The translations under genes were made by a program, and so were the position numbers. Below are positions 31,569-57,048 of a stretch of DNA of 64,000 bases, one piece after another; positions within the stretch are counted from its first letter, which is position 1; each line of letters begins with the position of its first letter. The stretch lies in contig CAWHUW010000005.1 of NCBI GenBank assembly GCA_963832655.1, forward strand, positions 342,359-406,358. Direction: 5' to 3'. The stretch comes from an uncultured Thermoleophilia bacterium (GTDB taxonomy: Bacteria; Actinomycetota; Thermoleophilia; UBA2241). The notes beneath the pieces were generated by a model. The model was given only the letters and a program-made list of their open reading frames with translations, was not told where the DNA came from and did no database searches.

Positions 31569-32698
31569 CGACGCAGGACCGCACCGGCGGCGCCCGCGCG
31601 CCCGTCGCGCGCCGCTGGAGCGCCGCCCCGGCAGCACCCGTCCGGCGCCCCGCCGATCCCTGGCGACGGGCGCGTCCTGCTCGCGCTGCTCGTCCTCGTC
31701 GTCGGCGCCGCCCTCGGCGCCGCCGGCTTCGCCGCCGAGCAGCGCGCCTTCGTCTGGAGGCCCGACGTGACGGCGCTCGTCGGGCGGCGGCTGGCGCGTG
31801 ACGGGCTCGGCGGGCCTGCGGCCCGACGCGCCCGCCATCGCCGGCGGCCGCCTCGTCTGGGGGCAGGGCGCCTACACGTGCGTGCTCGACCTCGACGCCG
31901 GCGACACCACGTCATCGGCGCCGCCCCGCGACGGGACTCGATCGTGGCCGCCGGCCGCCGGCGGGCGCTACGTCGCCTGGATCGAGTCAGCCCGAGCACC
32001 GGTCGGCGAGCCGGCGCGCCTGTGGGTCTACGACGCCGACCGCGGCGCGCAGGCAGAGCTTCGCCGTCGGCGCGGGCGCCGCCACGACTGCCGTCGCCGG
32101 CGACCTCGTCGCCTGGTTGACGACGCGCAGCGGCGTCGCCGCGCGTCGTCGACGCTCGACATGAGGACGGGTCGCCGCAGCCGTCATCGCCGAGGGCACG
32201 ACGTCGACTTCCCGGTGGTCGCCGGCGACGGCGACGTCGGCTGGCTGGTCAGCCGGCGGCGAGGGCGCGCGCCCGTCGGTCGTCGTCCGCGAGATCTGCG
32301 GACCGGTCGACGACGACGACCGTCCCGCTCGCCGCCGACGGCAGCGGGCTCACGCGTCGGCGACATCCAGATGGCCGGCCAGGACCCTGCTCTGGACGCT
32401 CCAGTCGCGACCGGCACGAGCACGATCGTCGTCCATCGACCTCGCAGCGGGCGCACGCGCACGGTCGCCAGCGGGACTGTGGTCCAGAGCCCTGCCACCG
32501 ACGGCGAGGTCGTGGTCTGGGCGGCCGCGGACGATGCTCTCCGGCACACCTGCTCGTCCGTGGACGTGACGCTCGCCGACGGCGCGCCAGCTCGAGGTCG
32601 TGGCCGGCCCGCAGACGTGGCCTACGTCCCTCGCCGTCGGCGGCGGTTGGGCAGCCTGGATCTCGACGACGGCTCCTGGTCGTACCTCGAGGCCGTGA
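31569..32698 (+). pseudogene. Hypothetical membrane-anchored repeat protein, several frameshifts; start not identified
   Basis: A TM segment (VLLALLVLVVGAALGAAGFAA) is followed by recurring G-x-x-V-(A/V)-W strands (GGRLVWGQG, GRYVAWIE, GDLVAWLT, GDVGWLVS, GEVVVWAA, GGGWAAWIS) distributed over three frames. No canonical start codon occurs in the first open frame. Confidence 0.3.
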
Positions 32699-36813: not shown

Positions 36814-38124
36814 TCATCCGATCTCGACCTCTTCGTGGGAGGGGCGCGGCGCCAGCTTCTCGATGAGACGCGGCCAGCGCAGGACCACGTGCTGCAGCGG
36901 GCTGCGTCTGAGCGCGACCATGTAGACGGCCCAGCCGACGACGAAGCCCACGGCGAGGTTGCTGACGACGAGCCCCAGGACGGCGACGAGCAGCGCGCAC
37001 ACGACCTCGTCGACAGTCGTGAGGTCGGCGATCAGGAGGCAGTGCTCGACGCCGACGAAAAGAAGCATGCCGGCCAGCACCGCGCCGGGCACGAGCAGCG
37101 GCGAGATGCCGAAGGCGGCGGCGGCGGCCAGCGCGGCGAAGAGCGCCGCCGCCAGGAGAGTGGCCCCCGCGGTGCGCGCGCCCAGGCGGTAGTGGGCCGT
37201 GGCGCCGCCGGCGCCGTGGCAGAGCGACATGCCTCCGGCCGCGCCGCAGACGAGGTTCATCAGACCGAGACTGAAGAGGAGGCGTTTCGCCGTCACGCGG
37301 CGCGCGGCGGCGCCGTAGTAGCCGCCCACGACGTCCTCGGTCGCATAGACGGAGTTGCCCAGGGAGAGCGGCAGTTGCGGCAGCACCAGGACGAACAGGG
37401 CGAGCCAGGCGTCGTGGGCGTTGGGGAGGTGCGCGAGCGGCAGAGCGGGTGCGGCGGGGACGGCGACAAGCTGGGAGACGCCGGCGACGACGAGAGCGAG
37501 ACCGCCGGCGGCGCCCATGCCGACGACCACGAGGCTTGCCGGCAGGCGCCGGCGGCGGCGGCCGGCGAACAGCGCGGCGGCGGCGGCCAGGGCGACGAGC
37601 AGGCCGAGCGAGAGCCGCGCGCCCCCGACACTGACGCCGAAGTGCAGGCCCGGCAGGGCCTTCGCGCCGTTCGCCGCGACCAGGCTGCCCTTCAGGAGGA
37701 GAAGCCCGACCGACAGCTGGATGCCACGCAGCACCGCCTTGGGGAAGAGGCGCGCGAGGTACCGGGCGACAGGCGTCACGGCGAGCAACAGCAGGAAGAG
37801 GGCGACCTCGACGCCGGCCGCAGCCACGACCGGAGCCGAGAGACCGAGCACGACGATGGTCGCGCCCATCACCTTCATCGGCTGCACCGGGAGCGGCACG
37901 CGAAAGACGAGGGCGCTCGCGGCATAGCTTGCGGCGACGCACAGGAAGATGCTCACGAGGCTCAGGCGCGCGACCGCGGCGACGCCCACGGCCAAGGGGA
38001 TCATGACGCCTATGTCGCCGATGCTGCCCGCCAGCTCGTGGCGGTCGAAGCGCAGCGGCAAGAGGCGGGAGGGGCGCACGGAGGCGCTGAGCGTCTTCTC
38101 ACTCTGCATCAGCATCACCGGCAT
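36814..38124 (-). CDS. MOT1/MOT2-type (sulfate-permease-related) putative molybdate transporter
   Basis: N-terminal FDRHELAGSIGDIGVMIPL motif and about 10-12 TM helices. It is the last gene of the Moco-maturation operon and overlaps the yqeB stop. The start is ambiguous (ATG 38124, 38115 or 38109). Confidence 0.65.
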   Translation of the reverse strand: MPVMLMQSEKTLSASVRPSRLLPLRFDRHELAGSIGDIGVMIPLAVGVAAVARLSLVSIFLCVAASYAASALVFRVPLPVQPMKVMGATIVVLGLSAPVVAAAGVEVALFLLLLAVTPVARYLARLFPKAVLRGIQLSVGLLLLKGSLVAANGAKALPGLHFGVSVGGARLSLGLLVALAAAAALFAGRRRRRLPASLVVVGMGAAGGLALVVAGVSQLVAVPAAPALPLAHLPNAHDAWLALFVLVLPQLPLSLGNSVYATEDVVGGYYGAAARRVTAKRLLFSLGLMNLVCGAAGGMSLCHGAGGATAHYRLGARTAGATLLAAALFAALAAAAAFGISPLLVPGAVLAGMLLFVGVEHCLLIADLTTVDEVVCALLVAVLGLVVSNLAVGFVVGWAVYMVALRRSPLQHVVLRWPRLIEKLAPRPSHEEVEIG

Positions 38125-38983
38125 CCCGAGAGGTCGCGAGCGTCGCTGCCCTGAGGCGGACGCCGCCGAGCAGGGCACAGGCCGCCTCGAGCACGCCGCC
38201 GGCGACCGCCAGGGCCTTGTCCGACGCGGTGAAGCAGTGCTCTCGAGCAGCGCGGGGGTCCACGTCGCCCAGCTTGAAACCGCGAGTCACCTCGAGGCCA
38301 GGGTGGAGGAGGCCGCGCAGCACGCCGTCCAGCCGCGAGCAGACCGGGACGTCGCCGACGTGACCGACGATCTGACCTGCGACGACTCGGTCGCCGATGT
38401 GGAGGGAACTCCGGAAGACCCCGGCGGCGGGTGCTCGCAGAAGCCGCTCCTCGGTATGACCGCCCACCTCTCCGGGGATGCCGGTGTCGGGCAGCGCCTC
38501 GCCGTGCGTGATCACCCGGCCGAGCGTGTGACCACGATTCGTCTCGATGACCGCGTGTGCATCACGGCCGGCGAAGAAGCCCGGACCCAGCGCGACGACG
38601 GCGGGCGCGTCGGCGATGCTCGTCCCGAGATTGCGTTTGGCCATGATCGCGTCGACGAGCAGGGAAGGCCTCACCTCGTGAAGCGCGGCACCCTCGGGAT
38701 CGACGACGACGGCGATCGCCCTTTGCCGCATCACGGCCTCGATCCGGCCGGGAGCGTCCACCTTGACGCCCTCGACTCCTTCGACGACCGTGCGCCCCTC
38801 GTACACGGCTTCAGCGAACGCCACCGTGCGTCGCACCACAGTCGGGCGAGCGATCTCGGTCATGACGACGGCGAACCCCGAACGGGAGAGTCGCAGGGCG
38901 ACACCGGTGGCCAGGTCGCCGGCGCCCTTGATCAGCGCCCGTGGGCGCGCGCCGCCGACGGCGTCGTGCGCGGCACCGGTCAC
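38099..38983 (-). CDS. yqeB: YqeB/EF2563-family selenium-dependent molybdenum hydroxylase system protein
   Basis: LIKGAGDLATGVALRLSRSGFAVVMTEIARPTVVRRTVAFAEAVYEG, AIMAKRNLGT, HAVIETNRGHTLGRVI and GDVDPRAAREHCFTASDKALAVAGGVLEA match my recollection of this family. GTG 38983 overlaps the xdhC stop (GTGA). Confidence 0.7.
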   Translation of the reverse strand: MTGAAHDAVGGARPRALIKGAGDLATGVALRLSRSGFAVVMTEIARPTVVRRTVAFAEAVYEGRTVVEGVEGVKVDAPGRIEAVMRQRAIAVVVDPEGAALHEVRPSLLVDAIMAKRNLGTSIADAPAVVALGPGFFAGRDAHAVIETNRGHTLGRVITHGEALPDTGIPGEVGGHTEERLLRAPAAGVFRSSLHIGDRVVAGQIVGHVGDVPVCSRLDGVLRGLLHPGLEVTRGFKLGDVDPRAAREHCFTASDKALAVAGGVLEAACALLGGVRLRAATLATSRDAGDADAE

Positions 38984-39819
38984 GGCGCGGACTCCTCGAC
39001 CGCGGTCTGTCCCTTCACGACCGAGGGCATGCGGCCGCCGACCTTGCTGTACTGCTCGGCGACGATCTCGGCCATGATGCAGAGGGCCAATTCCGCTGGC
39101 GTCTCGGCGCCGATGTCGAGGCCGATCGGCGCGTGGACAAGGTCCAGCCGCTCGCCGGCGACTCCCTCACCGCGAAGCCGCGCGATGATGGTCCGGACCT
39201 TGTTTCGGCTGCCGATCATGCCGATGTAGGCGGCCGGCGAGTCGATGACCGAGCGGAGCGCCGACTCATCGTGCTCGGCCGAATGCGTCAGTATGACGAC
39301 GTTCGTGTGTTCGTCTATGTCATACAGGTCGGCCGTGCGCGCCGGGTCGCCGCAGATCAGCCGGTCGGCCTCGGGAAAGCGTTCGGACGTGACCATGTCC
39401 TCTCGTGAGTCGAGGACGACGACCCTGAAGTCGAGCGTGCTGGCACAGGAACACAGCTTCTGGCCGACGTGCCCCGCGCCGATGACGAGCAGCGCGCGAC
39501 CCGGGCGATGGGGCTCGAAGAACACGGTGACGTCGCCCCCGCACAGGCTCCCCAAGGCGTGCTCCCCCTCCGTACGCAACTCGTACGTCCGGCTGCACGA
39601 CGCGCCCGAGGCGAGGCAGGCGCGAGCCTCGGCGATCGCCTCGCGTTCAAGCACGCCTCCGCCGATGGTCTCCTCGGTCGTCCCGTCTCCGAGGATCAGC
39701 ATCTTCGCCCCCACGTGCCGCGGGCTTGAGCCCTTGACGTCGGTGACGGTCGCCAGCACGAACGGGGTGCCGCGCCCGGCGAGTTCAGCCATCCGCGCGT
39801 AGAGATCGCCGGCCTTCAT
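38980..39819 (-). CDS. xdhC: XdhC/CoxI family molybdenum hydroxylase accessory protein
   Basis: FVLATVTDVKGSSPRHVGAKMLI, the LLVIGAGHVG Rossmann motif, and IGMIGSRNK / APIGLDIGAETPAELA. ATG 39819 overlaps the mocA stop (ATGA) and follows GAGAAGGAGAAGG. Confidence 0.85.
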   Translation of the reverse strand: MKAGDLYARMAELAGRGTPFVLATVTDVKGSSPRHVGAKMLILGDGTTEETIGGGVLEREAIAEARACLASGASCSRTYELRTEGEHALGSLCGGDVTVFFEPHRPGRALLVIGAGHVGQKLCSCASTLDFRVVVLDSREDMVTSERFPEADRLICGDPARTADLYDIDEHTNVVILTHSAEHDESALRSVIDSPAAYIGMIGSRNKVRTIIARLRGEGVAGERLDLVHAPIGLDIGAETPAELALCIMAEIVAEQYSKVGGRMPSVVKGQTAVEESAP

Positions 39820-40443
39820 GCGTCCTTCTCCTTCTCGTACCCGCAGGGCGAGTCGATATCCACGAGTTCGTGGGGGTCGTCGATGGGGACCATACAGACT
39901 TCGTCCGCCCGGCGCTCGATGACGCGCCGGCCCCCGAAGTCGCCGCTGCTCCCCGGCAAGCTCGGCGAACAGCGTCGCTCCGACGAGCACGGGGTTGCCC
40001 GGGCGCCCATCCACCGACGGCCGCACGATCCGCTTCTCGCAACGCGCGAAGCGATCGATCAGCGCGTCGAGGAGCGCGGCGCTGACGAAGGGCTGGTCGC
40101 CGAGCAGGATGAGGGCCCCGCCGGCCGCCGGGTCTACCGCCGAGAGTCCCGTGCGCAACGACGTGCTCATGCCTTTCGCGTAGTCCGGGTTCAGCACCAC
40201 GGTGACCGGCCGGCCGGCCAGGGCTTCCGAGATCTTCTCCGCCTCGTTGCCCACGACGACGATGGTCTGCGAGGCCTTCGAGCCCAGCGACGCGTCGACC
40301 ACGCGCTGGATCATCGACCGCCCGCCGACGGGCAACAGCAGCTTCGCGCCCCCCATGCGGGTGGCGCGGCCGGCGGCAAGGACCACGGCCGCAACGACGC
40401 CACGGCCGGCCGCGTGCCGGGACTCGCGCGCCACGTCGCTCAC
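39816..40443 (-). pseudogene. mocA: Molybdenum cofactor cytidylyltransferase-like (MobA/MocA NTP-transferase), one frameshift
   Basis: VAAVVLAAGRATRMGGAKLLLPV and LILLGDQPFV motifs. The family C-terminus (GSSGDFGGRRVIERRADEVCMVPIDDPHELVDIDSP) is in the frame of ORF 39816-40010. The shift occurs in a G4/C4 run at 39951-39954, and the unshifted frame reads through into xdhC. Confidence 0.75.
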
Positions 40444-41291
40444 GCCTCCTCCGCGACGACGGCGAAGCGGCCGGCGCGCAGGCTGCCGACGACGACGGAA
40501 TCTGGGCGCCCCCCGGAGACGCCGGCCACACGATCTCCCTCGCCCTCCGGCCCGACGCCCGCGCCCTGACGCCCGAGAAGCCGCAGCGCGATGTCGAGTC
40601 CCGCCGCCTGCGCGTCCGGCGTGTCGGCCTTGTTCAGCAGGACGACGATGCGGCAGCCCGCGTTTGCTTGCCGCAGATGCCCGACTTGCGCCAGCAAGCC
40701 GTCAGCCACCACTCGCGTCGTGACTTCCGAGCCCAGCGGGATCCCCAGGATCGAGGCGAGCACATCGGCGCGATGGACGCGCCCCTCAGTGAGAGCGGCC
40801 CCGAGAGCGTCCAGTCCGGCGACGTCGACGATCGTCGTGGCCACGCCAGGCACCTGGGGCTCATGCGGCCCAAAGGCCTTGAACGGCAGGCCCCGGCTCC
40901 CGTCGGCCTCGACGATGAGGTAGTCGGCCAGCCCGTGCGCCCACAGCCGGTCGACCGAGGCCGGAGACAGGCCGACCACTTTGCCTCCTTCGCCGTCGGA
41001 GTGCGCGACGGCGGCAGCATGTCCGTCCGCCAGCACCCCCTTCAGTCTGGGGACCAGCCGCCCCCCTTCCGTTCGCCTCAGCACCTGCCCGGTGACCGCC
41101 ATCTCGCTCAGGAGCATCGCCGTCGTCGTGGTCGTGATCACGCGGGCGCCGCCTGCCGTGAGCTCCGCGCCAAGGAGGCGCAAAGCAGTGGTCTTCCCTC
41201 CGGCCCCCACGAGCGCGACCACCTCCACAGGGCCAAGGCCGAGGGCGCCGGCGAGCGTCTCCTGTGCGATCGCGTGCACTGTTGCCTCCAC
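40440..41291 (-). CDS. yqeC: YqeC-family selenium cofactor biosynthesis / selenium-dependent hydroxylase accessory protein
   Basis: P-loop VALVGAGGKTT, ITTTTT, LIVEADGSRGLPFKAFGPHEPQVP and VVLLNKADT. GTG 41291 has an AAGGAAG RBS. It is the first gene of the operon. Confidence 0.7.
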   Translation of the reverse strand: MEATVHAIAQETLAGALGLGPVEVVALVGAGGKTTALRLLGAELTAGGARVITTTTTAMLLSEMAVTGQVLRRTEGGRLVPRLKGVLADGHAAAVAHSDGEGGKVVGLSPASVDRLWAHGLADYLIVEADGSRGLPFKAFGPHEPQVPGVATTIVDVAGLDALGAALTEGRVHRADVLASILGIPLGSEVTTRVVADGLLAQVGHLRQANAGCRIVVLLNKADTPDAQAAGLDIALRLLGRQGAGVGPEGEGDRVAGVSGGRPDSVVVGSLRAGRFAVVAEEA

Positions 41292-41580
41292 TCACTTCCT
41301 TGACGCTCTCGAGCGCTGTGTGTCGCGCCGAAGCGACACACTCGGCCGGCGGTCAGCCCGAGAACAGCGTTCCCCGGAACCGTAGGGTGGCGAACCGCCT
41401 TGTGTCGCCTCTTGCACATCGGCTTGGCCACAGGCACCATGTCGGTACCGCGACATTGTAGACGGGAACAGGATTCCTTGCTACACATATAGCGAATATG
41501 CGACAATGGGGCTTTCCGCGGGTGCCTTCAAGGACTCCTGGCAGACACTGACGGACCATCTCGGAAGAGAGGTTGCAGGT

Positions 41581-43945
41581 ATGGAATCGCGCTCGTTCGC
41601 GACCGTGGGCGCGGTGACGCGGCGAAAGGACGGGCTGGCGAAGGTCACGGGTGGCGAGGTCTACCCGTCCGACATGATCCTGCCCTATATGCTTGCACGC
41701 ACGCGTCCTGCGGAGCCCCCATCCCCACGCCCGGATCGTGTCGATCGACACGACCGAGGCGGAGAAGATGGGGGCCGTCTGCATCACCGCCGACGACGTG
41801 CCGCAGAAGCGGTACAACGAGCGCCAGGTGAGCATCCCGGCCAAGACCTACCGCGACCGGACCGTCCTGCCGCACGTGGTACGTCAGGTCGGCGAGGGCG
41901 TCGCGGCGGTGGCGGCCAGGACGGAGGCTTTGGCGGAGCGGGCGCTCCGCGCCATCAAGGTCGAGTACGAGGTGCTGCCCGCCGTGTTCGACCCCTACAA
42001 GGCGATGGAGCCCGACGCCCCGCGGCTCTACGAGGACGTCATGCTCGGCGACGTCGAGCTGCCCATCGAGCGCAACATCGCCTGCGAGCGCCAGGTGTCG
42101 GTAGGCGACGTCAACGTGGGCTTCGCCGAAGCCGACCTCGTGGTGGAGCGCGAGTACCAGACCGGCCGCGTCTACCACGCGCAGATGGAGCCCAAGTCCG
42201 TCATGTGCCGGCCGCAGGCGGACGGCGGTATCGAGCTCTGGGCCACGGCGCAGTCGATCCACAACACCCGCCAGCTCCTGGGCCGGATATTCGACATCCC
42301 CCTGAGCAAGGTGATCGTCCATCGCTCCTCCATCGGAGGCGCGTTCGGCTCGAGCATCCAGATGAACACGCCGATCGCCATCTGCGTGGCGCTCGCCCTC
42401 AAGGCGCGCAAACCGGTCAAGCTCGTGCTTACGCGCGAGGAGGACATGTACGACCACTGCAAGTACCCCGCCATCATCAGGCTGAGGTACGGCGTCAAGA
42501 ACGACGGCACGATCGTCGCCGGCGAGCTGAAGACGCTCGTGGACGTGGGCAGTCATAACATCCAGGGCTATCCGCTGCTCGGCTGTATGTCGGGCTGGTT
42601 CGTCTCGCTGTACCGCATGCCGCACATGAATTTCGAGGGAACGGCGGTGTACACCAACAAGGCGCCGGCGTGCGCCATGCAGGGCTACGGCAACCCGGAC
42701 GTGTCGTTCGCCGTCGAGTCGCACATCGACATCATCGCCGAGAAGCTGGGGATGGACCCGATCCAGCTGCGGATCAAGAACTACGTGGGCCTGGGCGAGA
42801 CGTTCTGGGGCCAGGGACCGACGGTGCGGTCCATCATCCGCAGCTGCGGCGTCGAGGAGATGCTCGAGAAGGGCGCGCCGATGATCGGCTGGAGCGAGCG
42901 CGGGCGTCCCGAAGAGAAGACCGGTCGCTTCCGGCGCGGCATCGGCGTGGGGCGGACGTTCCACACTTCGGGGACCGGCGCCGCCATGCCCGGCGAGGTG
43001 ATCGACTACTCCACCGCGATGGTGAAGGTGAACGAGGACGGCTCCGTCGACTTCTCGACCGCGCTCATGTGCCACGGAGGCGGCACGCTCGACGCCTGCG
43101 CCAAGTTCGTGGCCGAGGAGATGGGCGTGCCGTTCGACAAGGTCGGCATCTCTCCCGCGAGCACCACCGACACCGGCTACGACGTCTGCACGCACGCCAC
43201 CCGCGGCGTCTACTGCGGCGGCGGGTCGGTCGTCGAAGCGGCGCGCTCCGCCAAGGCGCGCCTGCTCGAGTTCGCCTCGCGCCTGATCGACGTCAACCCC
43301 GAGGCGCTGCAGATAGCGCCCGACCCGGAGACGGGGCAGGGCGTCATCTTCCTCGAGGGCGCGGCCGACAAACGGATCACTGTCGCCGAGGTGGCCAAGA
43401 CGGCCCAGCTCAAGGGCTGGGGGACGGCGATCGCCGTCGAGAGCCACCGCATGGTCAACTGCCCGCCGTGCTTCGTGACCAACTTCGTCGAGGTCGAGGT
43501 CGACACCTGGACTGGCGAGGTCGAGGTCACGCGCGCCGTCTGCGCCGTCGACGCCGGCACCGTGGTGAACCCCGACCTGGCCGCCGGTCAGCTCGAGGGA
43601 GGCCTCTGCAGGGGCATCGCGCAGGCGCTCCTCGAAGACACCGACTACCGCCCGGACACCGGCGAGCTCACCTGCGGCGGCACGTACATCGACTACAAGC
43701 TGTACACCGCCGCCGACATGCCGCCCGTCAAGGACGTCAAGACGTTCTTCGCCACCACGTTCGAGCCCTCGGGCCCGTTCGGCGCCAAGGGCATCGGGGA
43801 GGCGGCGAACAACGCGGTGGCCGCCGCCGTGATGAACGCCCTCTCCAACGCGCTCGGCATCCGCTTTCAGTTCATCCCCATCACGCCGGAGATGATCCTG
43901 GCCGCGATCCACGGCTGGTCGTGCCGGGGGGTGATCCCGGAATGA
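41581..43945 (+). pseudogene. Xanthine dehydrogenase family molybdopterin-binding large subunit (set 1), 1-nt frameshift after codon 37
   Basis: The N-terminus MESRSFATVGAVTRRKDGLAKVTGGEVYPSDMILPYM (frame of ORF 41506) continues as LHARVLRSPHPHARIVSID in ORF 41693-43945. One extra base lies between ATG-C-TTG at about 41692. The remaining 750 codons are intact (GGAFGSS, RGIAQAL, GAKGIGEAA). Confidence 0.85.
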
Positions 43946-44832
43946 GCGCGCCGGTCATCAACACGAGGGTCCTGGTCAACGACTTCGAGTACATCCTGGC
44001 GTCATCCCTCGACGAGGTGCTCGCGCTTCTCGACAAGCACGGCGAGGACGCCAAGGTCCTCGCCGGTGGCACGGACCTGGTCATCCAGATGAAGCTGGGC
44101 CGCCGCGCGCCGCGCCTCGTGGTCGACATCTCCAAGCTGGAGGAGCTCAAGCAGCTCGACGTCGGCGAGACGGTCCGCATCGGCGCCGGTCGCCGCTACA
44201 TCGACGTCCTGCGGTTCCTCCGGGAGCTGGGCTGCTACCACGGCCTCGCCGAGGCGATCGAGGGCATCGGCAAGATCCAGGTGCTCGCCGTGGGCACCGT
44301 GGGAGGCAACCTCAGCAACGGGTCGCCCGCGGCGGACACGGCGCCGCCGCTCCTCACCTATGACGCGCGCGTCCGCGTGATGAGCGCCCACGCCGAGCGG
44401 GTCATCCCGCTGCGCGAGTTCTACACGGGCCCCGGCGCGACGGTGATGGCGCCCAACGAGATCATGATCGGGGTCGAGTTCGACGCGTTCCCCGACGGCC
44501 GCGCGGGCGCCTTCCAGAAGATCGCCCGCGTCGCCTGCGACATCTCCAAGCTCACCTGTGCCGTCGCCGTGCAGCGGGACGGCGAGACCTGCACCCACTG
44601 CCGTGTCGCGCTCGGCGCCGTGGCGCCGACCCCGGTGCGGGCGCACGCCGTCGAGGCGGCGCTCGAAGGCCGGCAGATCGACGCGCACGTCGTCAGCGAG
44701 TGCGCCGCCCTCGTCGACGAGGACATCTCCCCGATCAACGACATCAGGTGCGGCGAGCTCTACCGCAGGGAGGCAGCCGGGGTCCTGTTCAGAGATGCTT
44801 TCGCGACAGCATGGGAGCGTGCAAGATGCTGA
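43942..44832 (+). CDS. Molybdenum hydroxylase FAD-binding medium subunit (set 1)
   Basis: Motifs LAGGTDLVIQMK, VGTVGGNLSNGSPAADTAP and a CO-dehydrogenase flavoprotein C-domain. The ATG overlaps the upstream stop (ATGA). Confidence 0.85.
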   Translation: MSAPVINTRVLVNDFEYILASSLDEVLALLDKHGEDAKVLAGGTDLVIQMKLGRRAPRLVVDISKLEELKQLDVGETVRIGAGRRYIDVLRFLRELGCYHGLAEAIEGIGKIQVLAVGTVGGNLSNGSPAADTAPPLLTYDARVRVMSAHAERVIPLREFYTGPGATVMAPNEIMIGVEFDAFPDGRAGAFQKIARVACDISKLTCAVAVQRDGETCTHCRVALGAVAPTPVRAHAVEAALEGRQIDAHVVSECAALVDEDISPINDIRCGELYRREAAGVLFRDAFATAWERARC

Positions 44833-45356
44833 CCACCTGCTCCAACGCCATCGTCCTCAACGTCAACGGCGAGGACCACATGCTCGTGGTCGAGCCCAAC
44901 GAGCTGCTCATCAACGTGCTGCGCAACGAGCTCGGTCTGACCGGCGCCAAGTACGGCTGCGGCACGGGCCAATGCGGCGCCTGCACCGTGCTCGTCGACG
45001 GCGAGCCCGTGCTGAGCTGTATCACCCTCGCGGTCGCCGTCGACGGCAAGGAGATCGTCACGATCGAAGGGGTGGCCGGGCCCAACGGAGAGCTCACCCC
45101 GATCCAGGAGGAGTTCCTCGACGAGAACGCCGTGCAGTGCGGCTTCTGCACTCCCGGCATGATCCTTGTGGCGGGCGACCTGCTGCGCCGCAATCCCCAC
45201 CCCACCGAGAGCGAGATCCGCCACCACATCAAGGGCAACATCTGCCGCTGCACCGGCTACAACGGCATCGTGCGCGCGATCCAGAAGACCGCGAAGCTGC
45301 AGGAAGAGCTGGGCGGCGACGGCATCGCCGACCGGGAGAAGGAGGTCTCGCGGTGA
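44826..45356 (+). CDS. Molybdenum hydroxylase (2Fe-2S) small subunit (set 1)
   Basis: Motifs CGTGQCGACTV, CGFCTPGM and CRCTGY. Confidence 0.9.
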   Translation: MLTTCSNAIVLNVNGEDHMLVVEPNELLINVLRNELGLTGAKYGCGTGQCGACTVLVDGEPVLSCITLAVAVDGKEIVTIEGVAGPNGELTPIQEEFLDENAVQCGFCTPGMILVAGDLLRRNPHPTESEIRHHIKGNICRCTGYNGIVRAIQKTAKLQEELGGDGIADREKEVSR

Positions 45357-46291
45357 CTGACACGCGCTATCTGCGCCCCCGGAGCCTGAAGGAAGCGCTG
45401 GAGATGATGGGGGAGCACTGGCCCGGGGCGAAGCTCCTGGCAGGCGGGACCGATCTGATCCCGCTCTTCCGCGCGGCGAAGTACTCCAGCGACTCGAGCT
45501 CGGCCAGCCTGGGCCTACAGGGCGGCTGCAAGTGCGGTGATTGCCGGATAGAACCCTTCCCCGACGTGCTCGTCGACGTCGGCGACCTGGATGAGATCAA
45601 GGGGATACGCAGGAACGATGGCGTTCTCGAAGTCGGAGCTGCGACCGTCATCGCCGATATCGCCTCGGATCCGCTTCTGAACGAGACGGTCCCTATCCTG
45701 GCCGATGCGGCCAGGTCTATCGGCAACCCTCTCGTCAGGAATCGGGCCACGATCGGGGGCAACCTTGCCACTGCCGCCCCCTGCGCCGATACGGCGCCAC
45801 CTCTCCTCGCCCTCGATGCGATCGTCCAACTGGCGAGCCCTGAAGGCCGACGAGAGATGCCCATAGCGGACTACTTCCTCGAGTACCGGACCACCAGCCT
45901 TCGGGAGACCGAGATGATCGAAGGTCTCCTCATTCCCATCCCTTCGGAGGAGTGGGCTGGAGGCTTCGAGAAGGTCAGATTGAGGAGGTCCGGCGCCATC
46001 AGCGTCGCGTCCGTCGCCGCGATGGTGCAGTCAGACGGAGCGACGTGTCTGAGCGCGAGGGTCGCCCTGGGCTCGGTCGCGCCGATCCCGCTGCGCGCGG
46101 CGGCCGTCGAGGCGGCCCTCGAGGGACGGCGCATCGACGCTGAACTCGTCATGGACTGCAGCAGGCTCGTGCAACAGCACATCTCCCCCATCGACGATCT
46201 CCGCGGCTCAGCCGAGTACCGGAGATGGGTGACGGAGGCGGTCGTCGCTCGGACCCTCTTGAGGGCGGCCGGGATCGAGGGGACGAACTGA
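45353..46291 (+). CDS. Molybdenum hydroxylase FAD-binding medium subunit (set 2) with a Cys-rich insert
   Basis: Motifs LAGGTDLIPLFR and ATIGGNLATAAPCADTAP. GTG 45353 overlaps the upstream stop (GTGA) and follows GAGAAGGAGG. An extra segment, YSSDSSSASLGLQGGCKCGDCRIEPF, lies after the first FAD motif. Confidence 0.85.
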   Translation: MTDTRYLRPRSLKEALEMMGEHWPGAKLLAGGTDLIPLFRAAKYSSDSSSASLGLQGGCKCGDCRIEPFPDVLVDVGDLDEIKGIRRNDGVLEVGAATVIADIASDPLLNETVPILADAARSIGNPLVRNRATIGGNLATAAPCADTAPPLLALDAIVQLASPEGRREMPIADYFLEYRTTSLRETEMIEGLLIPIPSEEWAGGFEKVRLRRSGAISVASVAAMVQSDGATCLSARVALGSVAPIPLRAAAVEAALEGRRIDAELVMDCSRLVQQHISPIDDLRGSAEYRRWVTEAVVARTLLRAAGIEGTN

Positions 46292-46779
46292 TGGGAAGCT
46301 ACAGCATTGCGATCAGTGTGAACGGTCAGTGGATGAAGACAGAAGTGACCGCCCTCGACACGCTTCTGGAGGTCCTGCGCAGCAAGTTCGGGGCGCTCGA
46401 CGTGAAGAGCGGCTGTGGCCAGGGCGATTGCGGGGTCTGCACGGTGCTCCTCGACGGCGTCGCCGTCAATTCCTGCCTGACCCTGGCCGTTCAGGCCGAC
46501 GGCAGAGAAGTGACGACGCTGAAGGGGCTGGGCACGCCCGACGACCCCCACCCTCTGCAGGAGAGCTTCGTGAGGCACGGCGCGATCCAGTGCGGCTTCT
46601 GCACGTCGGGGATGGTGCTCACCGCCAAGGCCCTTCTCGACGAGAACCCGACTCCGTCGCGGAGCGAGATAAGGGAAGCCATCTCCGGCAACATCTGCCG
46701 GTGCACGGGCTACACGAAGATCGTCGACGCGATCGAGGACGTGGCCGGGCAGCGCGAGCGCGTGGGGAGGCGGTCCTGA
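46291..46779 (+). CDS. Molybdenum hydroxylase (2Fe-2S) small subunit (set 2)
   Basis: Motifs CGQGDCGVCTV, CGFCTSGM and CRCTGY. The ATG shares one base with the upstream TGA. Confidence 0.9.
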   Translation: MGSYSIAISVNGQWMKTEVTALDTLLEVLRSKFGALDVKSGCGQGDCGVCTVLLDGVAVNSCLTLAVQADGREVTTLKGLGTPDDPHPLQESFVRHGAIQCGFCTSGMVLTAKALLDENPTPSRSEIREAISGNICRCTGYTKIVDAIEDVAGQRERVGRRS

Positions 46780-49208
46780 TGGCGACCACGATCCAGACTC
46801 CTGGCCACGAGACCGTCTCGCCGCCGGCAGACGCCCAGGGGTCCGCGTACAAGATCATCGGGCGGCCCATGCCGCGTCACGACGCTCGTGACAAGGTGTT
46901 CGGCCAGACGAAGTACGCCGACGACTTCGAGTTGCCCGGGATGCTCTACGGCAAGGTGCTGCGCAGCGAGCACCCAGCCGCGAGGCTGCTCGCGATCGAC
47001 ACCAGCGTCGCCGAGCACATGCCCGGCGTGCGGGCGGTGCTCACGGCCAAGGACGTCCCCTGCAACGAGACCACCAGCAAGTTCGGGCAGACCCACTCGG
47101 CCGGCGGGTTCGAGGGCCTTTACCGCGTCCTCGCGGACGGCAAGGTCCGCTATATGGGCGAGGCGGTGGCGCTCGTCGCGGCCGAGACTCTGGAGCAGGC
47201 GGAACGCGCAGCCAGAGCCATCCGCGTCGACTACGAGCCGCTGCCGGGGGTGTTCGATCCCATCGAGGCCATGAAGCCGGACGCCTACCGGGTCGGAGAA
47301 GAAGACACGAACGTCGTCTGCACCTACAAGGTCCGCAAGGGAGACGCCGAGCAGGCCCTCGAGGACGCGGACGTCGTCGTGGAGAACACCTACCGCGTCC
47401 CGTTCGGGGACCACGCGTACCTCGAGCCTGAATCCGGCGTCGCCTGGATCGACGAGGACGGGGTCATCACCATCCGGGCCTCGACTCAGGTCATCGAGCA
47501 CTTCCGCGATGTCGCCGACATCCTGAAGGTACCCCACAACAAGGTGAGGGTCATCGCCCCCATGCTGGGCGGCGGGTTCGGCGGCAAGGAGGACATCACC
47601 GTCGAGGCCTACCTCGCGCTGCTGACGAACAAGACCAAACGTCCGGTGAAGCTGACGTACACGAGGGAGGAGTCCCTTCTCGCCCACTCCAAACGTCATC
47701 CGTACTTCATGACGTACCGGACGGGAGCCAGGGCGGACGGCACGCTGGTCGCGATGGAGGCCGAGCTCGTCTCCGACGCGGGAGGCTACGCCTTCCTGAG
47801 CCCTTGGGTCCTGCTCTACTCCACCGTCTGCGCGACGGGGCCGTACAAGATGCCGCACGTGAAGGTCGACAGCTACGCGGTCCTCACCAACAACACCTTC
47901 ACCAGCGCCTATCGAGGCTTCGGCGCGCCGCAGGTGTGCTTCGCCTACGAGCTCCAGATGGATGCGCTGGCCGCCAAGCTGGGCCTCTCGCCGCTGGAGT
48001 TCCGCCGGCGCAACTACCTCCATACCGGGGACGAGACGGGGACGGGCCACGCCGTGCAGACCGCAGTCTGGACCGACGAGACGGCCCAGCAGGCGCTGGC
48101 GGCGCTGGGTGAGCCGTCACCGCCACGGTCGTCGCGGGAGAGGGTCGGCCGGGGGCTGGCGTCGGGCATGCAGAGCTACGGCAGACTGATCTACATGCAC
48201 GATTCCTCGCGCTCGTTCGTCGGCTTCGAACTGGACGGCACGGTCGTGGTGCGCTGCGGTGTCCAGGACATCGGAGGCGGTCAGGCGTCCTCTCTCGCTC
48301 AGATCGCGGCAGAGGTGCTGGGCGTCACGATGGACGACGTGACGGTCTACTTCGGCGACACCGCGTTGACGCCGCTGGCCGGCACGACGACCGCCACGCG
48401 TCAGCTCTACATGTCGGGCAATGCGACGCTGAAGGCCGCGAGGGCCGTGAGGGACGAGCTGGCCAGGAAGGCCGGCGAGATCCTCGGCGTCGACCCCGAG
48501 CGGCTCGAGTTGAGAGACAAGGCGTTTCACGTGCTCCCGGCCGACGGACTCGAGGTCGCTGCGGGGGGTAAGGGTCAGGACGCGCTCCAGTCCGGACAGT
48601 TGCCGCTGAGAGAGGCGCTGAAGGCTTGCGCCTCGGCAGGGGTGCCGCTGGGCAACCTCGCGCAGTTCAACGCGCCCGCTCGGGAGGTGGGCGACGTGCA
48701 GAACGTGCACGGCCAGATCTTCCCGGACTTCACTTTCGGCACGCACGCCGCGGAGGTGGCCGTCGACATCGACACGGGGCAGGTCGAGGTGCTCAAGTTC
48801 GTGGCGTCGTTCGACGTGGGGCAGACGATCAACCGGCTGAGTGCCGAAGGCCAGCTCGAAGGGGGGTCCGTCTGTGGACTGGGCTACGCTCTCCTCGAGG
48901 ACCTCAAGCTGAGCGAAGGAAGGACGGTCACGTCGGCGCTCGACACCTATCTCGTGCCGACGTCCATGGATACCCCCGACGTGGTCCCGATCCTGATCGA
49001 GTCCAAGGGAGGTGTGGGGCCGTTCGGCGCCAAGGGCATCGGCGAGCCTTCGTCGACGTCCGGCGCACCGGCGATCGTCAACGCGGTCGCCGACGCGATC
49101 GGCATCTGGATCACCGAGCTCCCGGTCACTCCGGAAAGGGTGCTCAGGGCGCTGAGGGAACGCGACGATGAAGCAGGGCATTCTTCGCAGGGAGACCGTG
49201 CGCCGTAG
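46779..49208 (+). CDS. Xanthine dehydrogenase family molybdopterin-binding large subunit (set 2)
   Basis: Motifs RHDARDKVFGQTKYADD, MLGGGFGGKED, YRGFGAPQ, GGGQASSL and GAKGIGEPS. The ATG shares one base with the upstream TGA. Confidence 0.9.
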   Translation: MATTIQTPGHETVSPPADAQGSAYKIIGRPMPRHDARDKVFGQTKYADDFELPGMLYGKVLRSEHPAARLLAIDTSVAEHMPGVRAVLTAKDVPCNETTSKFGQTHSAGGFEGLYRVLADGKVRYMGEAVALVAAETLEQAERAARAIRVDYEPLPGVFDPIEAMKPDAYRVGEEDTNVVCTYKVRKGDAEQALEDADVVVENTYRVPFGDHAYLEPESGVAWIDEDGVITIRASTQVIEHFRDVADILKVPHNKVRVIAPMLGGGFGGKEDITVEAYLALLTNKTKRPVKLTYTREESLLAHSKRHPYFMTYRTGARADGTLVAMEAELVSDAGGYAFLSPWVLLYSTVCATGPYKMPHVKVDSYAVLTNNTFTSAYRGFGAPQVCFAYELQMDALAAKLGLSPLEFRRRNYLHTGDETGTGHAVQTAVWTDETAQQALAALGEPSPPRSSRERVGRGLASGMQSYGRLIYMHDSSRSFVGFELDGTVVVRCGVQDIGGGQASSLAQIAAEVLGVTMDDVTVYFGDTALTPLAGTTTATRQLYMSGNATLKAARAVRDELARKAGEILGVDPERLELRDKAFHVLPADGLEVAAGGKGQDALQSGQLPLREALKACASAGVPLGNLAQFNAPAREVGDVQNVHGQIFPDFTFGTHAAEVAVDIDTGQVEVLKFVASFDVGQTINRLSAEGQLEGGSVCGLGYALLEDLKLSEGRTVTSALDTYLVPTSMDTPDVVPILIESKGGVGPFGAKGIGEPSSTSGAPAIVNAVADAIGIWITELPVTPERVLRALRERDDEAGHSSQGDRAP

Positions 49209-49266: not shown

Positions 49267-49926
49267 TCAGCGCCCGTTGGGCGGATCGCCCAAGGACGCG
49301 GAACCCAGAAGGCGTGAGGCGAAGTCGAGGCACAGACCCTCGGCCATCGACACCGTGACGCCCTCGATTCCGATGAGGCAGTGCAGCCAGGCGCCTTCCA
49401 TCATGGCGATGAGGCCCCTGCCCGCGGCCGCGGTGTCGACGTCGTGGCGCTCACCGGCGGCGGCATCGATGAGCCTGCCGAGGTAGGCGCCGATCTCCTC
49501 GTAGAGCGCGTTGTTCAGCCGTGCGATCTCGTCGTCGCTGCGCGCCAGCGCCCAGAACCCGAGCCAGGCATACTGGTAGTCGCGAGCGCCCTTCAGCCGC
49601 TCGAACATCGGCAGGATCGCCTGGCGCAGGCGGAGCACGGGGTCGGCCTCGGCCTCCGTCTCGTCGTCGAACATCCCCAGCATCCGGCGGAAGTTGTCGG
49701 CGAGAAGCTGGAACGCTTCAGAAAGAAGACGGTTCTTGCTGCCGTAGTAGTGGCGCACCAGACCCCGCGACACGCCCGCCCTGTGGGTGATGCGTTCGAT
49801 GGATGCCCCTGCGACTCCGTCGTTGGCCATCGAGGCGATGGTCGCCTCGAGGAGGCGGAGACGCATCTGCTCGCCGCGCTCGGCCCTGGTCGGGGAGGCG
49901 GCGGCTGGTGCCTTCTCTGCGGTCAT
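49267..49926 (-). CDS. TetR/AcrR family transcriptional regulator (BetI-like)
   Basis: HTH segment ASIERITHRAGVSRGLVRHYYGSKNRLL. Confidence 0.85.
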   Translation of the reverse strand: MTAEKAPAAASPTRAERGEQMRLRLLEATIASMANDGVAGASIERITHRAGVSRGLVRHYYGSKNRLLSEAFQLLADNFRRMLGMFDDETEAEADPVLRLRQAILPMFERLKGARDYQYAWLGFWALARSDDEIARLNNALYEEIGAYLGRLIDAAAGERHDVDTAAAGRGLIAMMEGAWLHCLIGIEGVTVSMAEGLCLDFASRLLGSASLGDPPNGR

Positions 49927-50131
49927 AGTCGCAGCATATCAATCGCTCGGCGAGCTGGTCACCACCCCCGAGCATCGCGGGGTCCCGTGAGGAAGACACG
50001 GCCGAACCCTTCCCGGTCTTGTCATACATAGAGCGAGCGTCTGACTATCGCGTGTGGGGGGTCGGGCCGTTGACCCCGCGCCCGAGTCCCTCGACGGAGC
50101 ACGCCCAGGCAGCGATCGAGGGACGAACGCC

Positions 50132-50592
50132 ATGAGCACGACCGACGGACGCTACGGGCGCCGTGGCAGCGTCCGTGGCCGAGCCGAGGGCACGGTGCTT
50201 CGCTCGTCCCATGGCATCTGCTTCTGCCTCGTGGAGCCGGAGTCGGGTGTGATGACGGAGAAAGGGCACCCGCTCAACGGCAGGTCCACGGCCGGCGCAG
50301 TCCTCGTCCTCCCGATGAGCAAGGGTGGCTCGGTCTTGCCGCTTGACGGCCTGTATCAGCTCGTGAAGCATGGGGTGGCACCCCGGGCCATGGTCGTCCA
50401 GAGCCCCGACACCGTGCTGGTGGCCTGCGCCGTGATCATGGAGATCCCCTTGGTCACGGAGGTGGACGCCACGTTCCACGAGCACGTGTCCGATGGTCAG
50501 CAGGTCGCCGTGGAGGCGGACGAGGGATGGCTCGTCGTCCCGCAGGACCGCACGGCCGATCTGGCAATCTCAACCGGGAGCCGGACAGATGA
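50132..50592 (+). CDS. DUF126 (aconitase X swivel-domain / AcnX small-subunit-like) protein; 3' end uncertain
   Basis: GRAEGTVLRSSHGICFCLVEPESGVMTEKGHPLNGRSTAGAVLVLPMSKGGSV and GVAPRAMVV..DTVLVACAVIMEIPLV fit DUF126. The reading frame has no stop until 51298. A TGA in the +1 frame at 50590-50592 overlaps the next ATG (ATGA), which suggests an indel near 50520-50590. Confidence 0.55.
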
Positions 50593-51857
50593 AGGTACTC
50601 AAGGAAGCCGCGAAGGCCGCCGCGAACGCGGGGGACGTGACCGACCTGGTCACAAGGCTCATCGCACAAGTCCGGGCCGGTGGCGATGCGTCGGTCCTGG
50701 AGCTGACGGAGGAGTTCGACGGCGTCGCTCTCGAGGCGCTCGAGGTGCCCCGGAAGGCGCTCAAGGACGCCTACGATCGAGTCGGGGCGGAGACCGTCGA
50801 GAGCCTGGGATTCGCGGCCGAACAGCTGCGCGCGTTCGCGGCGAAGCAACTCGACTGTTTCTCGCCGCTGCGCGTCGAGACGCTGCCGGGCATCACTCTC
50901 GGGCACAGACTCGTCCCGGTCAGATCCGTGGGGGCCTACGTACCCGCCGGCCGCTATCCCCTTCCCTCGACCGCGCTGCATTCGGTCATCCCGGCGAAGG
51001 TGGCGGGGGTGGCCCATGTCGCCGCGTGCTCGCCGCCTTCCAGAGGCTACGGCGGCGTCCACCCCGCCGTCCTCGTCGCCCTCGACATCGCCGGGGTGGA
51101 CCGGGTGTTCTGCATGGGCGGCGCGCAGGCGATCGCCGCGTACGCGTTCGGGACGGAGTCTGTGCCCGCCGTGGACATGGTCGTCGGTCCCGGCAACAAG
51201 TACGTGACCGAGGCGAAACGTCAGGTCTCGGGCCGCGTCGGGATCGACCTGCTGGCGGGGCCCAGCGAGGTCCTCATCATCGCCGACGACTCCGCTGATC
51301 CCCGGTGGGTGGCCGTCGACCTGCTCGCCGGGTGCGAACACGATCCCGACTCCATCGCCTGCCTGGTCACGACCAGCCCCGCCCTGGCGCAGGCCGCGCT
51401 CGACGCCATTCCCGTCGAGTGCCACACGCTTGGCACAGGCGAGATGGCGTTGCGGACCTGGGACGACAACGGGCGCATCATCCTGGCCGACTCCATGGAG
51501 GAGGCCGTCGCCGTTGCCGAGGACTTCGCCCCGGAGCACCTCCAGGTGATGACCCAGGACGACGACGCGGTCGTCGAGATGCTGACCAACTTCGGCTCGC
51601 TCTTCGTCGGGCCGTACGCCCCGGTGGCGTACGGCGACTACGTCTCGGGGACGAACCACACGCTCCCGACGATGCACTCCGCGAAGTTCATGAACGGCCT
51701 CTGGGTCGGCACGTTCCTGAAGACGTCGTCCATCCAGATGCTCACCGCCGAGGGGTCCGACCAACTCGCGAAGCACTGCGCGCATCTCGCCGGCGTCGAG
51801 GGTCTGCTCGCCCATCAGCGCTCAGCCGAGCTGCGCGTATGGCGGGCAAGAGCGTGA
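50589..51857 (+). CDS. Histidinol dehydrogenase family protein (HisD paralog)
   Basis: Motifs GAYVPAGRYPLPST, MGGAQAIAAYAFGTE, VGPGNKYVTEAKR, GPSEVLIIAD and GDYVSGTNHTLPT. The usual SQAEHD motif reads AGCEHD. Confidence 0.85.
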   Translation: MKVLKEAAKAAANAGDVTDLVTRLIAQVRAGGDASVLELTEEFDGVALEALEVPRKALKDAYDRVGAETVESLGFAAEQLRAFAAKQLDCFSPLRVETLPGITLGHRLVPVRSVGAYVPAGRYPLPSTALHSVIPAKVAGVAHVAACSPPSRGYGGVHPAVLVALDIAGVDRVFCMGGAQAIAAYAFGTESVPAVDMVVGPGNKYVTEAKRQVSGRVGIDLLAGPSEVLIIADDSADPRWVAVDLLAGCEHDPDSIACLVTTSPALAQAALDAIPVECHTLGTGEMALRTWDDNGRIILADSMEEAVAVAEDFAPEHLQVMTQDDDAVVEMLTNFGSLFVGPYAPVAYGDYVSGTNHTLPTMHSAKFMNGLWVGTFLKTSSIQMLTAEGSDQLAKHCAHLAGVEGLLAHQRSAELRVWRARA

Positions 51858-51932: not shown

Positions 51933-52442
51933 TCACCCGACAGCAGACAGCCCGTCCTCGGCCGTGACGAGACCGAGGCACTCGACCGAGAGTCGTGGCA
52001 CGGTCGAGGTGACGAGCGAGACGATCGCTGCCAGCTCGCCTCCTTCGCGCTCCAGCAGGTTGCGCACGGCGGTCGAGAACTCCCATTTGTGGACCCTGTC
52101 GGCGACGAACACGCCTCGAGGGTTCGCCGGGAACGCGCCGGAGGCGCCGACGAGGCCTTCGAGGTTGAGGGCCCGCACGAGGGGGAGCGCGAGTTCGCGC
52201 GCGACGACGAACCCGAGGATGAGGTCGTTCGCGCCCTCGCCCACGACGACGAGGTTCGGGTGGACCGTCCGGGCCTTGTCGGCCAGGAGGATGCCGAGCC
52301 GGTCCACGCCGGCAGGGTCGAGCATGCCGTGGTATCTGCCCACCAGGACCGGTTCGCCCTTGCCCGCGCCCGTATCAGAGGCAGGTACCTCCACCGACAG
52401 ACCGCCCCGGCGGAGCATCGCCCAGATCTCTTGACTCGTCAC
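51933..52442 (-). CDS. Phosphoribosyltransferase-fold protein with a degenerate PRPP-binding motif
   Basis: GTG 52442 is preceded by GGGAGGA. The layout resembles type I PRTases (LILGFVVARELALPLVRA ... RGVFVADRVHKWEFSTAVRNLLEREGGELAAIVSLV), but the acidic/TTG PRPP loop is not conserved. Confidence 0.4.
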   Translation of the reverse strand: MTSQEIWAMLRRGGLSVEVPASDTGAGKGEPVLVGRYHGMLDPAGVDRLGILLADKARTVHPNLVVVGEGANDLILGFVVARELALPLVRALNLEGLVGASGAFPANPRGVFVADRVHKWEFSTAVRNLLEREGGELAAIVSLVTSTVPRLSVECLGLVTAEDGLSAVG

Positions 52443-52669
52443 GTTGTCCTCCCGCCTAGATGAGACGAAGACGCCGGGGTGGTGCCCCTCGCAGCCGAGC
52501 CGAGGTGACACAACGGCGTGTTAACTGTTCGTTCTCGAGCCCACGCAACCTTGGTTATGCCCAGCGGGACTGATCGTCATGACCGGTGGCCCCCACCCCG
52601 GGGCGGCCGTCGGCCTCGTGCTCGTCGATGCCCCCGGGACACGGGCGTCGCAGCCGGTCGTCCGACGAC

Positions 52670-54055: not shown

Positions 54056-54294
54056 CCGCCGCCTCCGTCTCGAGCAGGGACCGCCAACGAGCGGGTACTC
54101 GCCGCTGCGAGAGACCCGCGTCATCTCACCTTCGTCGTTGCCACGGCTCAGCGAGCGGCGGCGTCTCCAGCATACTGCGCGCACGCCGCGGCCGGCTCGC
54201 GTACCCCGCGCCGGAGTGGCGGAGCCGGAGCTTCCCTCCGCCGAGGCGCGCGACGTCCCCCGGCGCAGCCGCTTTGGCCATCAGCGGCGCGAGG

Positions 54295-55878: not shown

Positions 55879-55908
55879 GACGCCCTCCGCTGTCGTCGGG
55901 ACCGGGGT

Positions 55909-56883
<975 letters not shown>

Positions 56884-57048
56884 CGGAATGCCTCCTCCAC
56901 TCATTGGAAGTACGGTGGGGCATCATCCCACACTAGCTATATGTATAGCAACGTCTCGCGCATGACCACACTGGCTATTGTCTTCGAACAGATCGGGGAC
57001 GTCCACGAACGCGAGTACTCCTGGTTCGGTCTGCGGAAGCTGACGCGC

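Follow-up and report, generated by a model that had tools for sequence, protein, structure and literature searches.

The joint occurrence of YqeB and YqeC is the accepted genomic signature of the trait in which molybdenum hydroxylases carry a labile selenium-containing cofactor (Zhang, 2008; Peng et al., 2016). In Escherichia coli K-12, the trait locus comprises yqeB-yqeC-mocA together with xdhABC, xdhD, ygfK and ssnA, and further loci are known from Clostridioides difficile and Enterococcus faecalis. Proteins of the YqeB family, TIGR03309, were noted to be frequently fused to XdhC (Haft and Self, 2008). Among 5,200 cultured genomes surveyed, actinobacterial YqeB plus YqeC occurred only in a few gut Coriobacteriia; the cultured Thermoleophilia (Solirubrobacter and Conexibacter Iso977N) had SelD, SelA and SelB and neither YqeB nor YqeC (Peng et al., 2016). 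Here we describe a locus in a 64-kb stretch of DNA (contig CAWHUW010000005.1, the whole of which is called the window) from an uncultured Thermoleophilia bacterium, in which yqeB and yqeC occur in one operon (38099-41291), and thus with the trait signature, beside two hydroxylases of the xanthine dehydrogenase (XDH) family. The locus is a clear new example of the trait described in 2008 and not a new kind of system, and we consider it probable that it makes a selenium-containing Mo cofactor by means of a self-contained set of genes for the molybdopterin cytosine dinucleotide (MCD) and for labile selenium.

The window has about 70% G+C, and spurious frames crowd the raw lists of its open reading frames (ORFs); a filter on third-position GC gave a clean gene set, with eleven genes at 36814-49208, five on the minus and six on the plus strand. 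The minus-strand accessory operon starts with yqeC (40440-41291), which encodes a predicted SIMIBI-class GTPase, followed by mocA (39816-40443) for the Mo-molybdopterin cytidylyltransferase, xdhC (38980-39819) for an XdhC-family cofactor chaperone of 279 amino acids, the trait marker yqeB (38099-38983) in a short form of 294 amino acids, and a gene (36814-38109) for a MOT1-family carrier, a SulP-related anion carrier and putative molybdate importer. Beyond a divergent intergenic control region (41292-41580), which was aligned with that of three related loci (L001, L010 and L025), the plus strand encodes enzyme 1 as the molybdopterin-binding large subunit L1 (41581-43945), the FAD-binding subunit M1 (43942-44832) and the 2x[2Fe-2S] subunit S1 (44826-45356), and enzyme 2 as the corresponding M2 (45353-46291), S2 (46291-46779) and L2 (46779-49208). 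Each enzyme has a full Pfam domain set (PF01315, PF02738 and PF20256 in L1; PF00941 and PF03450 in M1 and M2; PF00111 and PF01799 in S1 and S2), so that two complete XDH-family enzymes are present, as had been claimed. In both, the large subunit combines Hammerhead, MoCoBD_1 and MoCoBD_2, the medium subunit FAD_binding_5 and CO_deh_flav_C, and the small subunit Fer2 and Fer2_2; the 809-amino-acid L2 has an XDH-type active site. The positions, strands and subunit order (L-M-S, then M-S-L) in the original prediction were likewise all reproduced. Read from the sequence, GTGA overlaps join yqeC/mocA, xdhC/yqeB and S1/M2, and ATGA overlaps join mocA/xdhC and L1/M1; M1 and S1 overlap by 7 nt, and M2/S2 and S2/L2 by 1 nt each (TGATG). 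Overlapping stops and starts, as proposed for the six plus-strand genes, are therefore seen at all five of their junctions, while the 4-nt chaining proposed for the whole minus-strand operon applies to yqeC/mocA, mocA/xdhC and xdhC/yqeB and not to yqeB/MOT1, where the end of yqeB and the start of MOT1 share 11 nt.

Searches with hidden Markov models bear out the assignments of YqeB, YqeC, MocA, the XdhC-family protein and the MOT1 carrier, and TIGR03309, TIGR03172 and PF16983, the three models that the original prediction had singled out, all score above cutoff. YqeB matches TIGR03309 with 352.7 bits (cutoff 220) over profile positions 2-253 of 256. XdhC has both PF02625 (XdhC_CoxI) and PF13478 (XdhC_C), and reaches 146.5 bits with TIGR02964, under the equivalog cutoff of 161.6. 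The YqeB of E. coli is 541 amino acids long; its residues 272-527 are 50% identical to the YqeB of the window, and its residues 2-271 are the best pairwise match of the window XdhC (35.5% identity). Because the two halves align in this way to XdhC and YqeB, the overlapping xdhC-yqeB pair is, as judged from these alignments, a two-gene version of what E. coli makes as one fused YqeB chain. XdhC had previously been listed as a separate, additional component, and is better described as the detached N-terminal half of an E. coli-type YqeB, which matches the fusion noted by Haft and Self (2008). An AlphaFold2 model of YqeB (pLDDT 83.6) comprises an N-terminal Rossmann-like domain and a C-terminal barrel-sandwich-hybrid domain of the lipoyl/biotinyl-like kind, for which no whole-chain relative was found in the PDB (TM 0.26 or less); PDB sequence searches with YqeB and YqeC returned only noise and no solved homologue. 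Two cysteines that are invariant in the YqeB alignment, C250 and C269, were considered as selenium carriers and rejected, as they are not conserved in the E. coli protein.

MocA matches PF12804 with 126 bits and, as written, TIGR03310 with 142.8 bits. The reading frames of mocA and L1 were compared with those of L001 (ENA ERZ27297438), an Illumina assembly with about 86% DNA identity to the window and matching synteny, which encodes separate MocA (208 amino acids) and XdhC (279 amino acids) proteins and an intact L1 of 787 amino acids. A tblastn search with the L001 MocA gave matches in two frames and placed a 1-nt insertion near 39931-39944, through which mocA and xdhC appear as one 487-amino-acid ORF, in which a MobA-like nucleotidyltransferase domain precedes XdhC_CoxI and XdhC_C, with the last 42 MocA codons in the other frame. 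In L1, a 1-nt insertion near 41684-41700 puts the first 37 codons out of frame with the remaining 750, and the gene as written seems to begin at a TTG at 41693; repaired, it encodes 787 amino acids. This comparison exposes two frameshifts that the original prediction had overlooked. The TIGR03310 profile is covered end to end by the repaired MocA, whose score of 180.6 bits falls just short of the cutoff (186.45).

YqeC matches TIGR03172 with 153.7 bits (cutoff 73.05) and PF19842 with 117 bits (cutoff 27.6), and is 33% identical to E. coli YqeC. Its AlphaFold2 model (pLDDT 92.9) is that of a SIMIBI-class P-loop NTPase, with BchL, MeaB, SRP54/FtsY, FlhG and HypB as fold neighbors (TM about 0.4). 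The GTPase motifs G1, G3 and G4 are invariant, namely GxxGGKT (GAGGKTT in the window), EADG and NKxD (NKAD), and point to GTP as the predicted nucleotide. A homology to MobB found no support: hhalign aligned only 24 P-loop columns with 25% probability, and MobB is outside the top 50 fold matches. Among the 120 best YqeC homologues, 13 are YqeC-MocA fusions with the gene order of the window, and the homologues included a single MocA-YqeB and a single YqeC-YqeB fusion as well; some of these fusions could be read-through artefacts of the 4-nt overlaps.

The two large subunits share only 34% identity and, judged by their conserved motifs, are members of distinct orthologue groups. The L1 group keeps (A/S/L)Q, GG(A/S)FGSSIQ, AMQGYGNP and GIGEAA across phyla, and the L2 group keeps STQ, GGGFGGKE, (Y/N)RGFGAPQ and GIGEP, which the L2 of the window presents as STQ, GGFGGKE, YRGFGAPQ and GIGEPS. 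The bovine XDH active site comprises Phe798-Gly799-Gly800-Lys801-Glu802, Arg880 within FRGFG, and Glu1261. A catalytic Glu is present in both large subunits of the window (GIGEAA in L1 and GIGEPS in L2), and L1 has FGSSI and MQGYG at the positions of Glu802 and Arg880. By motif comparison, it is L2 that carries the Glu/Arg pair typical of purine-oxidizing enzymes, while L1 has neither residue. The profile scores are 481 bits for L1 (XdhA, under the equivalog cutoff) and, for L2, in which both Glu802/Arg880-type residues are present, 568 bits for pucD (cutoff 783) and 513 bits for Se_dep_XDH (cutoff 830). Among solved structures, L2 matches HcrA of 4-hydroxybenzoyl-CoA reductase with 325 bits, and NdhL and NdhM of the nicotinate dehydrogenase of Eubacterium barkeri (3HRD) with 301 and 200 bits, respectively; L1 is further than L2 from all solved structures. 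Since the L-M-S-M-S-L array of these distinct orthologue groups recurs in different phyla, the two enzymes most likely hydroxylate an N-heterocycle twice in succession. L2 is the better candidate, both for action on a purine and for dependence on selenium. According to the literature, including work on the DOPDH of Clostridium sporogenes, no active-site residue separates selenium from sulfur enzymes, in line with the original prediction, which had stated that the sequence does not show which of the two enzymes, if either, depends on selenium. An insertion of about 25 residues in M2 (45485-45565) contains a CxCxxC motif (GGCKCGDC, 45521-45544) and is restricted to the window, L001 and L010. The motif was considered as an additional Fe-S site, comparable to that of 4-hydroxybenzoyl-CoA reductase, and rejected: it has three cysteines only, and the insertion is absent from the orthologues in L025 and L060.

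More than 7,800 homologues came out of the search with YqeB, and at least 14 species genomes of Actinomycetota, Thermoleophilia and Gaiellales carry an equal module. The nearest species genome is L010, a metagenome-assembled genome (MAG) of an uncultured Thermoleophilia bacterium whose YqeB is 87% identical; next in rank come other Actinomycetota, Thermoleophilia and Gaiellales MAGs, and then Anaerolineae, Thermoflexus, Treponema, Archaeoglobi and others. All eleven genes are present in L001 and L002, and ten of them in L010, which is missing MOT1 alone. In L025 (YqeB 60% identical), L1-M1-S1-M2-S2 runs up to the contig end and adjoins yqeC-mocA-yqeB, and in L060, an Atribacterota MAG (Candidatus Phoenicimicrobium oleiphilum), L1-M1-S1-M2-S2-L2-yqeC-mocA-yqeB-xdhC lies on a single strand; its L1 is 55% and its L2 58% identical to those of the window. 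Four other Actinomycetota genomes carry M-S-L-yqeC-mocA-xdhC-yqeB, and many loci of relatives have yqeB without yqeC nearby. One Actinomycetes MAG (MFD00032.bin.2.39; L009 and L013) has two yqeB loci on different contigs, and therefore some genomes carry paralogous maturation modules. The actinobacterial context had been called unusual, which is correct against the 2016 survey of cultured genomes, with its few Coriobacteriia, and not against the number of homologues and Actinomycetota-group genomes given above: the Thermoleophilia setting is new relative to published surveys and is not rare in current metagenomic data.

The selenium interpretation is the standard one for YqeB and YqeC as markers; it is reasonable but unproven, because selD was not found in the 64-kb window. 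Several observations weigh against the reading of the locus as a whole. In tblastn searches of the window and 83 related loci with E. coli SelD, selD was absent from the window and from within 10 kb of yqeB in the Actinomycetota relatives, and was near yqeB only in one Clostridia and three Treponema genomes. L1 and L2 are both under every NCBIfam equivalog cutoff, the hhalign result, confined to the P-loop, gives no support for a specific MobB-like role of YqeC, L010, the closest genome, lacks MOT1, deletion of yqeC in C. difficile had no phenotype, and any experimental link of YqeB or YqeC to selenium chemistry is indirect. Some of these points would suit a general maturation system, in which YqeC, MocA, XdhC and YqeB install an ordinary sulfido ligand in MCD hydroxylases without any selenium. 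Such a system would account for the lack of selD in the window and around yqeB in Actinomycetota, for the extreme abundance of YqeB homologues in environmental lineages, for the many loci in which yqeB has no yqeC nearby and for the lack of a yqeC phenotype, and Peng et al. (2016) cautioned that YqeB or YqeC alone may serve selenium-unrelated processes. However, both markers are present together here, TIGR03309 was confined to selD-positive genomes, and selD usually lies at a distance from yqeB where other selenium traits, such as selenocysteine, exist (Haft and Self, 2008), while SelD itself is present in cultured Thermoleophilia. Further, on xanthine and urate a yqeB deletion strain of C. 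difficile grew as a selD mutant does, and DOPDH purified from a selD mutant of C. sporogenes was inactive. We therefore regard a selenium-free function of the module as unlikely. The same deletions bear on the earlier statement that the roles of both proteins are undefined, which by now holds only in part.

Two further readings concern single parts of the locus. The MOT1 carrier matches PF16983 with 114 bits (cutoff 30) in two stretches, in both halves of the protein, has no NCBIfam match, and is 82% identical to its L001 orthologue. Among 80 yqeB loci, MOT1 occurs only in the window and in L001 and L002, and because it is absent from L010 and the other loci it is dispensable, an optional add-on. 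It might import a selenium oxyanion (or sulfate) in place of molybdate, and so feed the selenium branch. Sulfate-type carriers move selenate too. The MOT1 gene is translationally coupled to yqeB, and the family is SulP-related, with a substrate that is only predicted for its bacterial members; for the homologues in sulfate reducers, this prediction is molybdate. The characterized PF16983 members, however, are high-affinity molybdate carriers, the rest of the operon concerns assembly of the molybdenum cofactor, and every yqeB locus other than those of the window, L001 and L002 lacks the gene, so that selenium import appears quite unlikely. The second reading starts from the frameshifts, and sees in the locus a decaying gene cluster that has lost enzyme 1 and MCD synthesis. 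The single-base insertions, at about 39935 and 41690 relative to the intact L001 genes, do not lie within long homopolymers, as would suit real mutations. Against this, the protein past each break is still 86-92% identical to relatives (92% for L1 against its intact L001 counterpart), with a third-position GC of 0.85-0.95, and comparable breaks affect unrelated genes: hydantoinase B is broken at 13200 into two ORFs (12355-14180), a GH65 hydrolase gene is in four pieces (25785-27875), a fusion gene of class-V aminotransferase and homoserine dehydrogenase is fragmented (29541-31767, at 29.5-31.8 kb), and near 56000 (about 55950-56050) an aspartate-carbamoyltransferase-like gene continues into pckA. 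The related long-read genome L010, a MAG with contigs named in the 'contig_N' style, also shows fragmented matches, a pattern that fits an indel-prone assembly. Because similar breaks occur throughout the whole window, the mocA and L1 frameshifts are most likely indel errors of an error-prone assembly, as far as the sequences tell, and decay of the cluster is very improbable.

Taken together, we hypothesize that the locus supports selenium-cofactor maturation in four steps. The MOT1-family carrier would import molybdate, as its family membership suggests, and MocA would join cytidine monophosphate (CMP) to Mo-molybdopterin to yield MCD, a family function that is established in E. coli. YqeC, a predicted SIMIBI GTPase that is coupled and often fused to MocA, might then serve as a hand-over or chaperone factor that is gated by nucleotide. 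Finally, XdhC and YqeB, the equivalents of the fused E. coli YqeB, would hold the cofactor and exchange its terminal ligand for selenium, which would come as selenophosphate from a SelD encoded elsewhere in the genome, and would insert the selenated cofactor into the apo-enzymes. This last step draws on C. difficile genetics and comparative genomics. As a bolder extension, and one that we think rather unlikely to hold, the hydroxylase array and yqeC-mocA-xdhC-yqeB could form a mobile cassette shared across phyla (Thermoleophilia and Atribacterota) for a two-step, selenium-dependent hydroxylation of N-heterocycles in anoxic soils and sediments, in which YqeC would gate the transfer of MCD from MocA to an XdhC-YqeB selenation complex and MOT1 would supply the metal. 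The host is a soil bacterium of the Thermoleophilia that is probably anaerobic.

In the intergenic region, upstream of L1, a 31-nt block (41477-41507; TTGCTA-N18-GACAAT) is conserved in four loci (the window, L001, L010 and L025), and is probably a promoter or operator of the enzyme operon, as this conservation suggests. Just upstream of yqeC lies a palindrome, TGTGTCGC-N6-GCGACACA, at 41319-41340, and a third copy of TGTGTCGC occurs upstream of yqeC at 41401-41408. The palindrome could serve as an operator, and the TetR-family regulator encoded at 49267-49926 is one protein that might bind it. No Moco or other riboswitch was matched in Rfam, either across the whole window at gathering thresholds or in the intergenic region at E<=1, and a simple scan of the intergenic region for sigma-70 promoters and terminators returned none. 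The window also yielded no tRNA genes, and hence no tRNA-Sec.

Directly after L2, at 49267-51857, lie the gene for this BetI-like regulator and a divergent paralogue of the histidinol-dehydrogenase family (TIGR00069, 474 bits). At 51933-56904 on the minus strand, 10 kb from the yqeC module, are an aspartate-carbamoyltransferase-like gene, pckA, a cyclic amidohydrolase gene (dihydroorotase/allantoinase-like) and a small ORF, and the corresponding four genes stand directly beside the yqeC module in L003 (2755-7576) and L004 (1496-6790). This adjacency may reflect a linked ring-opening catabolic route or phylogenetic inertia. A pathway linked to the hydroxylases was considered for the carbamoyltransferase, pckA and amidohydrolase genes and set aside, as they are syntenic only in these close relatives and score as ordinary PyrB, PyrC and PckA. 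Further downstream (57124-59277, minus strand), an MtmB-family (monomethylamine methyltransferase) gene without an in-frame stop lies beside a gene for a corrinoid (B12-binding) protein, and a dimethylamine methyltransferase homologue in L003 (14816-16222) is split into 344 and 123 amino acids, as would be expected for an in-frame amber codon, possibly for pyrrolysine. On the other side of the locus, the minus strand at 10773-23154 encodes two short-chain dehydrogenases, hydantoinase/oxoprolinase A and B, a polysaccharide-deacetylase-family protein and a branched-chain-type ABC transporter with its binding protein, and is a possible lactam/hydantoin catabolic island. An IS481-family transposase gene (LZ_Tnp_IS481 and rve; 24101-24949, minus strand) marks a shift in G+C from about 0.65 to about 0.73, and a 620-amino-acid ORF at 864-2726 on the plus strand combines DUF2064 with a radical-SAM/SPASM domain.

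The delivery of labile selenium to the Mo cofactor is the least understood biological selenium route, and the locus leaves that question unanswered. The original prediction had seen in it a compact model locus, which we would not maintain: the organism is uncultured, the sequence contains frameshifts and its 64 kb are without selD. As a model it is of limited practical use, given that cultivable genetic systems exist (C. difficile, C. sporogenes and E. coli). What it does contribute is, on the one hand, that the trait is common in uncultured Actinomycetota of soils and sediments, beyond the gut anaerobes that have been studied, and, on the other hand, an indication of which proteins to co-purify, through the comparison of split and fused forms (XdhC plus YqeB against E. 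coli YqeB, and the YqeC-MocA fusions). It also yields testable predictions, namely that YqeC is a GTPase, that YqeB combines a Rossmann-like domain with a lipoyl-like barrel, and that L2 is a purine-type enzyme. The cross-phylum double-enzyme array, the split and fused relations and the fold predictions are useful leads rather than surprises.

Compared with the loci of E. coli, C. difficile and E. faecalis, the locus has in common TIGR03309, TIGR03172 and a MocA homologue, which once repaired scores just below the TIGR03310 cutoff, beside XDH-family enzymes, whereas its host is a GC-rich uncultured Thermoleophilia bacterium. Relative to the E. coli locus, YqeB is split into XdhC and YqeB, the four accessory genes and MOT1 are joined in one overlapping operon, and the genes for YgeW/X/Y, SsnA and YgfK are absent from the window; the enzymes are two FAD-containing L/M/S sets, and not of the Fe-S-fused XdhD/DOPDH type. 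The best summed structural relative is the Mo-Se nicotinate dehydrogenase of E. barkeri, with which L2 aligns end to end over NdhL plus NdhM, and which enzyme 2 appears to resemble as an MCD-type enzyme with FAD and 2x[2Fe-2S]; however, L2 is a single chain with the purine-type Glu/Arg pair, while its E. barkeri counterpart is split in two. As in Rhodobacter capsulatus, an XdhC-family protein is encoded beside the enzyme genes, with YqeB as its partner here in place of the cysteine desulfurase of R. capsulatus-style systems. The pairing, and sometimes fusion, of a P-loop NTPase (YqeC) with a nucleotidyltransferase recalls MobA-MobB, but the similarity of YqeC to MobB is that of the P-loop only, and MeaB, HypB, BchL and SRP GTPases are equally similar. 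Finally, the carrier shares PF16983 with the MOT1 of plants and algae and with the predicted homologues of sulfate reducers, and the copy in the window sits inside an operon for Mo-cofactor maturation.

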